This document shows, piece after piece, positions 1-157 of a DNA stretch of 2,993 nucleotides (positions are counted from its first letter, which is position 1; each line of letters opens with the position of its first letter). The stretch lies in NCBI RefSeq assembly GCF_003334335.1, contig NZ_QOWQ01000086.1; one strand, given 5' to 3'. The notes beneath the pieces are model-generated. The model was given only the letters and a program-made list of their open reading frames with translations, was not told the origin of the DNA and did not search any database. The stretch is from Escherichia coli (GTDB lineage: Bacteria; Pseudomonadota; Gammaproteobacteria; Enterobacterales; Enterobacteriaceae). The translations under genes and the position numbers were made by a program.

Positions 1-157
1 CTTTATTATCGAGTTCGGTGACCGCCTGGACGGCCACTTCTGAGAAAAGGTATTTACACAGAATCCTGAACAGGCTCGAAAGGTGCGATGATTGCGTTAT
101 GCGGACACTGCCATTCGGTGGGAAGTCATCATCTCTTAGTATCTTAGATACCCCTCC

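Follow-up and report, generated by a model that had tools for sequence, protein, structure and literature searches.

An IS1414 terminus adjoins a 5'-truncated AdoCbl riboswitch upstream of an intact btuB gene in Escherichia coli

The stretch of DNA analysed here, referred to as the window (2,993 nucleotides of E. coli contig NZ_QOWQ01000086.1, assembly GCF_003334335.1), carries one end of an insertion sequence, the 3' part of the btuB leader, the genes btuB and murI, and a ribosomal promoter region, all read in the same direction (Table 1). The btuB reading frame is open from position 212 to the stop codon ending at 2101, and the last 56 nt of btuB (2046-2101) are also the first 56 nt of murI. 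Over positions 78-2993 the window shows 100% identity to K-12 MG1655, as well as to many other strains; this span takes in the btuB leader from +62, btuB, murI and rrnB P1. Leader positions are numbered with +1 at L002 540, which places the ATG at L002 780 (window 257) and window base 78 at +62.

Table 1. Features of the window and the basis of each assignment.
Feature	Position	Strand	Basis
IS1414 transposase gene, 3' end, encoding ...FIIEFGDRLDGHF	1..43	+	100% identity to annotated transposase ends in 54 records
IS1414 non-coding right end, including the imperfect terminal inverted repeat (about 49-77)	44..77	+	comparison with L001
AdoCbl riboswitch aptamer remnant, leader +62 to +175	78..191	+	truncated RF00174 match; 100% K-12 identity
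Predicted 8-bp target site GAAAGGTG, K-12 leader +62 to +69	78..85	.	inferred from the 8-bp duplication in L001 and the 9-bp duplication in MEI008
P13/L13 hairpin of the expression platform; L13 (CGCGU, 203-207) without its partner L5	191..222	+	fold prediction
P14 hairpin, sequestering the btuB Shine-Dalgarno sequence	226..251	+	predicted in truncated and full leader
btuB coding sequence, intact, 614 codons and stop, ATG at 257	257..2101	+	open reading frame list; 100% K-12 identity
murI (glutamate racemase), intact	2046..2903	+	open reading frame end at 2903; coordinates from MEI008 annotation; 100% K-12 identity
rrnB P1 promoter region, contig end	2917..2993	+	exact 77-nt match to K-12 rrnA/rrnC upstream regions

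The last 77 bases of the window are an exact repeat common to the regions upstream of rrnA and rrnC in K-12, with 2917 as the first position of exact identity. Each window end extends into a multicopy repeat for exactly 77 nt, on the left into IS1414 and on the right into the rrn P1 region, from which we infer that the window is a whole short-read contig of a de Bruijn assembly with k=77. This accounts for the fact that only 77 nt of IS1414 are visible and that the left junction of the element is unseen. Since the contig stops 77 nt inside IS1414, the genome is expected to carry at least two copies of the element. Short-read contigs that end k bases into an insertion sequence can pass for unexplained divergence.

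The break in the identity to K-12 is sharp and lies between positions 77 and 78. Window 1-77 agrees with the colinear K-12 leader at 20 of 77 positions (26%, chance level), and the identity jumps to 100% at base 78, with 823 of 823 positions matching over window 78-900 in the colinear comparison. When window 1-300 was compared by megablast with 5,426 complete RefSeq genomes of E. coli, every genome was matched only over 78-300, and in none of them did the sequence of 1-77 stand beside the btuB leader. An uninterrupted btuB promoter and leader was found in 5,422 of these genomes at an identity of at least 95%. The exact 38-nt junction gave no match in the GTDB species-representative genomes and none in the JGI metagenome contigs. 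The collection index has 42,072 blocks with the exact BtuB protein, and a search for IS1414 upstream of exact-BtuB genes returned the standard trmA-btuB context only, among 24 of these 42,072 blocks.

The origin of the first bases was revealed by a separate search. Window 1-77 is identical at 77 of 77 positions to the last 77 bp of annotated copies of IS1414, an element of the IS256 family, and the matching records are annotated as 'IS256-like element IS1414 family transposase'. Of the 5,426 E. coli genomes 1,038 contain the same sequence, with a maximum of 21 copies, and it also occurs on 344 plasmids from several enterobacterial genera. Positions 2-43 translate to FIIEFGDRLDGHF followed by the stop TGA at 41-43, as in the C-terminus of WP_073529405.1, and the end of the transposase coding sequence at L001 1843 corresponds to window position 43; the transposase gene runs in the same direction as btuB. 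In L001 (strain H8) IS1414 occupies 563-1877, a length of 1315 bp, with the 8-bp direct repeat AGAGATTA on either side. The match to the window stops at L001 1877, just before this duplication, so that window base 77 is the last base of IS1414. The inverted repeats of the element are imperfect and align over about 29 bp, the left end in L001 (GAGCCTGT...) pairing with the right end in the window at 20 of the 29 first positions; the left end of the element reads GAGCCTGTACATAG.

Hence, the break is the exact terminus of a transposon adjoining leader nucleotide +62. A terminus exact to the base is the signature of transposition and not of divergence or of a random chimera. The allele is new to the collections searched, yet its kind is well known, namely an insertion mutation caused by an insertion sequence, here in a riboswitch leader. 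The initial annotation, made from the letters of the window, had recognized positions of about 79-256 as the E. coli btuB leader and the first 78 or so nucleotides as departing from it, and both statements hold, with the boundary lying one base away from the 78/79 that it proposed. Among the causes it offered, a rearrangement or junction agrees with the sharp break seen in the K-12 and megablast comparisons and with the derivation of the first bases from the right end of IS1414. Strain or species divergence is excluded by the 5,422 of 5,426 genomes with an intact leader, and a mistaken picture of the normal leader can be set aside as well, for the leader had been described accurately and the positions of its motifs were confirmed. 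Full-length identity of 1-256 to a reference leader, which would have made the region ordinary, is absent, given the 26% agreement over 1-77.

Other copies of IS1414 were also inspected. In E. coli TC_EC10 (L003, NZ_CP144885.1, 1763-5203) IS1414 stands without a target-site duplication, between the flanks TTTGCCC and TATAGCTG, and adjoins a frameshifted TonB-dependent receptor gene, not btuB; the missing duplication suggests an IS-associated rearrangement or a recombination between copies. An IS1414 copy beside a gene annotated as 'TonB-dependent receptor plug' (H53) was considered as a second btuB case and rejected, the gene being a different, frameshifted receptor gene. The paper on IS1414 and astA (PMC12585946) contains nothing on btuB, on target sites or on promoters.

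Missing from the window are leader positions +1 to +61 and the btuB promoter. According to the Rfam alignment and the published structure, the K-12 sequence upstream of +62 comprises the 5' strand of P1, P2, the 5' strand of P3, J3/4, P4/L4, P5/L5 and the start of P6, A63 lies in P7, and L5 pairs with L13 (nt 190-195) in the L5-L13 kissing loop (PMC5359240). Neither the J3/4 core AAUAGGGAA nor the P4/L4 hairpin GUGNNAAUC occurs in window 1-256 with up to one mismatch. In the K-12 leader AATAGGGAA is found at +17 and the L4 motif AGTGCGAATCT at +29, and both are likewise nowhere in window 1-256 with one mismatch allowed. The loop L5 (GCUGACGCGCAGC, K-12 +42 to +54) has gone with the upstream part, while L13 is kept. 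The 5' strands of P1 and P3 (GCCGGUC... from +1) lie upstream of the break, and their 3' strands (CCUGCCGGC, 167-175) remain without partners.

The covariance model of the cobalamin riboswitch gave a consistent picture. RF00174 at its gathering score (31.5 bits) found no match in the window, and a global alignment over window 6-191 reached 18.5 bits in E-value mode. Searched from base 78, the window yielded a 5'-truncated match to model positions 85-189 of 189 with 29.2 bits (E 5e-6); the intact K-12 leader, used as positive control, scored 87 bits (E 3e-22). In total, 84 of the 189 consensus positions are missing (model positions 1-84, from the 5' strand of P1 through P6). What remains of the aptamer holds the P7-P12 periphery, the CACUG/GGGAAG element (CACTGCCATTCGGTGGGAAG, window 106-125), the B12 box AGACCTGCCGG (window 166-176) and the unpaired 3' strands of P3 and P1. 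Minimum free energy folds contain P13 and P14 in the truncated and in the wild-type leader alike, with z-scores near 0; the role of P14 has been described (PMC11162775). Measured against the E. coli btuB AdoCbl riboswitch, window 78-256 is thus its authentic 3' two-thirds together with the expression platform, whereas the window as a whole lacks model positions 1-84, falls below the gathering score and is predicted to be unable to form a ligand pocket.

These results bear out the remark of the initial annotation that the conserved 5' core motifs were absent and that the aptamer would be incomplete, and the lack of a match at the RF00174 gathering score removes its alternative of an ordinary leader region. 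Its suggestion that B12 control of btuB could be lost gains support as a prediction from the disappearance of half of the ligand pocket and of L5. The btuB promoter is displaced together with the 5' aptamer, a point absent from the initial annotation.

We consider it highly probable that an IS1414 copy has inserted into the btuB leader, that AdoCbl sensing has been lost, and that btuB has become blind to B12 and probably much reduced in expression. The IS1414 copy would lie in the 5' leader with its transposase gene directed toward btuB and its right terminal base against +62, and would cut btuB off both from the native promoter and from leader +1 to +61. The segment lost in this way comprises half of the AdoCbl-binding four-way junction as well as the L5 loop that L13 needs for closure of the ribosome binding site, and leader +62 to +240, btuB and murI are untouched. 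Judged by the right junction, the only one visible, the event was probably a simple transposition that duplicated the 8-bp target GAAAGGTG. Such an insertion predicts a left junction in which ...GCAGCGGTAAGGAAAGGTG is followed by GAGCCTGTACATAGATT, with GCAGCGGTAAGGAAAGGTG standing directly before the IS1414 left end GAGCCTGTACATAG.

With the ligand pocket and L5 gone, AdoCbl binding and signalling should be lost and btuB should be B12-blind, which we hold with high confidence. Both the aptamer and the L5-L13 pseudoknot are required for AdoCbl repression, which amounts to about 97% in the wild type; the EP1 mutant, in which the pseudoknot is destabilised, was unregulated at the levels of translation and mRNA, whereas control by OmrA, through pairing in the coding sequence, is independent (PMC11162775). 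A crude consensus scan at standard and at relaxed stringency predicted no sigma-70 promoter in window 1-320. Downstream of the hexamer TTTACA (53-58), at a spacing of 16-18 bp, stand CTCGAA, TCGAAA or CGAAAG; these lack the key -10 bases and bear no resemblance to a -10 element. Nor was an intrinsic terminator predicted in IS1414 or in window 1-320. Since no outward promoter is predicted, btuB would have to be transcribed by polymerases that read through from the transposase gene or that start at the native promoter and cross the element, and a low, B12-blind expression of btuB appears most likely. BtuB is a receptor for colicins and phages, and the strain is therefore likely to be tolerant to BtuB-dependent colicins and phages and to take up B12 more poorly, the latter being tolerable for E. 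coli.

The insertion also has to be reconciled with the gene downstream. murI is essential, and its place in a btuB-murI operon means that the insertion is not fully polar unless murI has a promoter of its own; in the same way, the overlap of this essential gene with btuB sets a limit on the polarity of any insertion upstream in btuB. The two genes are treated as an operon (PMC11841063). If the proposed explanation is correct, the window represents a natural allele in which a mobile element has stripped a textbook riboswitch of its sensing half and left the gene intact. The strain would possess a B12 receptor that is free of B12 regulation and probably under-expressed, with a bearing on its susceptibility to colicins and phages and on B12 scavenging; in other respects this is an ordinary insertion mutation.

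Disruption of the btuB leader by insertion sequences is rare but recurrent in wild E. coli. Three of the four exceptions among the 5,426 genomes were read, and they carry IS1, an IS3-family element and ISVsa5, respectively, in the leader. In MEI008 (L004, NZ_CP074680.1, 2727-3509) IS1 is flanked by the 9-bp duplication GGAAAGGTG, which corresponds to +61 to +69. This natural isolate is the closest parallel to the present window: IS1 is co-oriented with btuB, its target nearly coincides with the GAAAGGTG (+62 to +69) predicted here, and the 5' third of the aptamer that it cuts off is the one removed by IS1414 here as well. It differs in the family of the element, in the 9-bp length of the duplication and in that both junctions are visible, whereas the window displays the right one only. 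In LP5-1 (L020, NZ_CP101866.1, 2697-4081) an IS3-family element breaks the leader at about +35, and in HCM-22C-2 (L019, NZ_AP038228.1, 2624-4004) ISVsa5, of the IS4 family, stands at about +199 and runs against the direction of btuB. The btuB coding sequence itself is split by IS421 in ECO-104, by IS2 in RM10410 and by ISApl1 in EC416, where the rest of btuB-murI is 100% identical to the window (H71-H73). In LP5-1, HCM-22C-2, ECO-104, RM10410 and EC416 the same locus has been broken by insertion sequences, but the elements, sites and orientations differ, and the insertions in the coding sequence are clear nulls, whereas a leader insertion keeps the protein intact.

Two of these genomes merit a further remark. 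In LP5-1 the RefSeq annotation shows a 'cobalamin riboswitch' of full length (191 nt, 3891-4081) whose interval shares bases with the end of the IS transposase coding sequence, which means that a 5'-truncated riboswitch can pass annotation. With remnants of this kind annotation pipelines can err in two ways: they overlook the sequence when its score is under the threshold, which is the situation here, or they label it as a riboswitch, which happened in LP5-1. In HCM-22C-2 ISVsa5 lies between the aptamer and the btuB start codon, and an intact aptamer has been parted from its expression platform.

The same junction could also have left btuB de-repressed, with read-through from the transposase gene or the native promoter giving constitutive, B12-blind BtuB at a useful or raised level, and this outcome we regard as unlikely. 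Transposase promoters are usually weak, and loss of BtuB is a classic selected phenotype conferring resistance to colicins and phages, both of which count against it, as do the lack of a predicted outward or hybrid promoter at the junction and the 213-nt untranslated stretch that follows the transposase stop. The transposase gene does point toward btuB with no terminator predicted in between, the downstream murI must be transcribed, and IS1 in MEI008 and the IS3-family element in LP5-1 are likewise co-oriented with btuB; the opposite direction of ISVsa5 in HCM-22C-2 shows, however, that orientation is not uniform. De-repression would also agree with the reports that destruction of the L5-L13 pseudoknot abolishes AdoCbl repression (PMC11162775) and that a higher level of btuB expression can be of adaptive value when cobamides are limiting (PMC11841063). 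IS256-family elements can activate neighbouring genes in staphylococci (PMC6702299). The case of IS256 upstream of walKR in S. aureus resembles the window in that an IS256-family element stands directly 5' of the gene, but in cases of this type a hybrid promoter raises expression (PMC6702299), and none is predicted at the junction of the window.

Returning to insertion of IS1414 as a single event, the junction could alternatively be the edge of an IS1414-mediated rearrangement, such as an adjacent deletion or an inversion or deletion between two copies, with the promoter and leader +1 to +61 deleted or far away. We judge this decidedly unlikely. Such an event would fit with the visibility of a single junction, with the need for two or more IS1414 copies in the genome, with the copy in L003 that lacks a target duplication, and with one complete genome that is devoid of any match to the btuB promoter and 5' leader. 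Simple transposition is, however, the commonest origin of such junctions, the IS1 of MEI008 at the same site is a simple insertion with a duplication, and nothing in the window demands a rearrangement.

If simple transposition into the leader is accepted, the near coincidence with MEI008 raises the question of an insertion hotspot. Among the 5,426 genomes only MEI008 is broken within the 58 nt around the site, and one coincidence in about five independent leader events (p about 0.1, by our own rough estimate) is only weakly suggestive. That +61 to +69 is a preferred or selected target, where independent insertions of the unrelated elements IS1414 and IS1, co-oriented with btuB, turn the B12-repressed btuB-murI operon constitutive by read-through from the element, seems very doubtful to us. 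If it were true, the insertions would represent an adaptive rewiring that removes the riboswitch and keeps BtuB and MurI, and not a knock-out.

An artefact of assembly or library preparation, in which a chimeric join of IS1414 and btuB leader is absent from the genome, is highly improbable. The short-read contig does end in repeats, and the junction occurs in none of the collections searched, but the position of the break is precisely that of the element's terminal base, which for a random chimera would be a coincidence of roughly 1 in 1,300. In addition, the two sides of the join share no microhomology by which a k=77 graph might be misled, and the contig passes the junction without branching, as would be expected of a unique, well-supported path. 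Natural divergence of the 5' leader into a variant riboswitch that still functions has a practically negligible probability and is rejected, as identity falls from 100% to 26% at a single base, 1-77 is transposon sequence, 5,422 of 5,426 genomes keep the canonical leader and the RF00174 threshold is not reached.

Two minor observations were made in the survey of complete genomes with the leader sequence. One genome gave no match over the btuB promoter and 5' leader (L002 470-595). In about 70 genomes the 58-nt leader piece of btuB has two matching sites, and two of the sites matched lie on plasmids.
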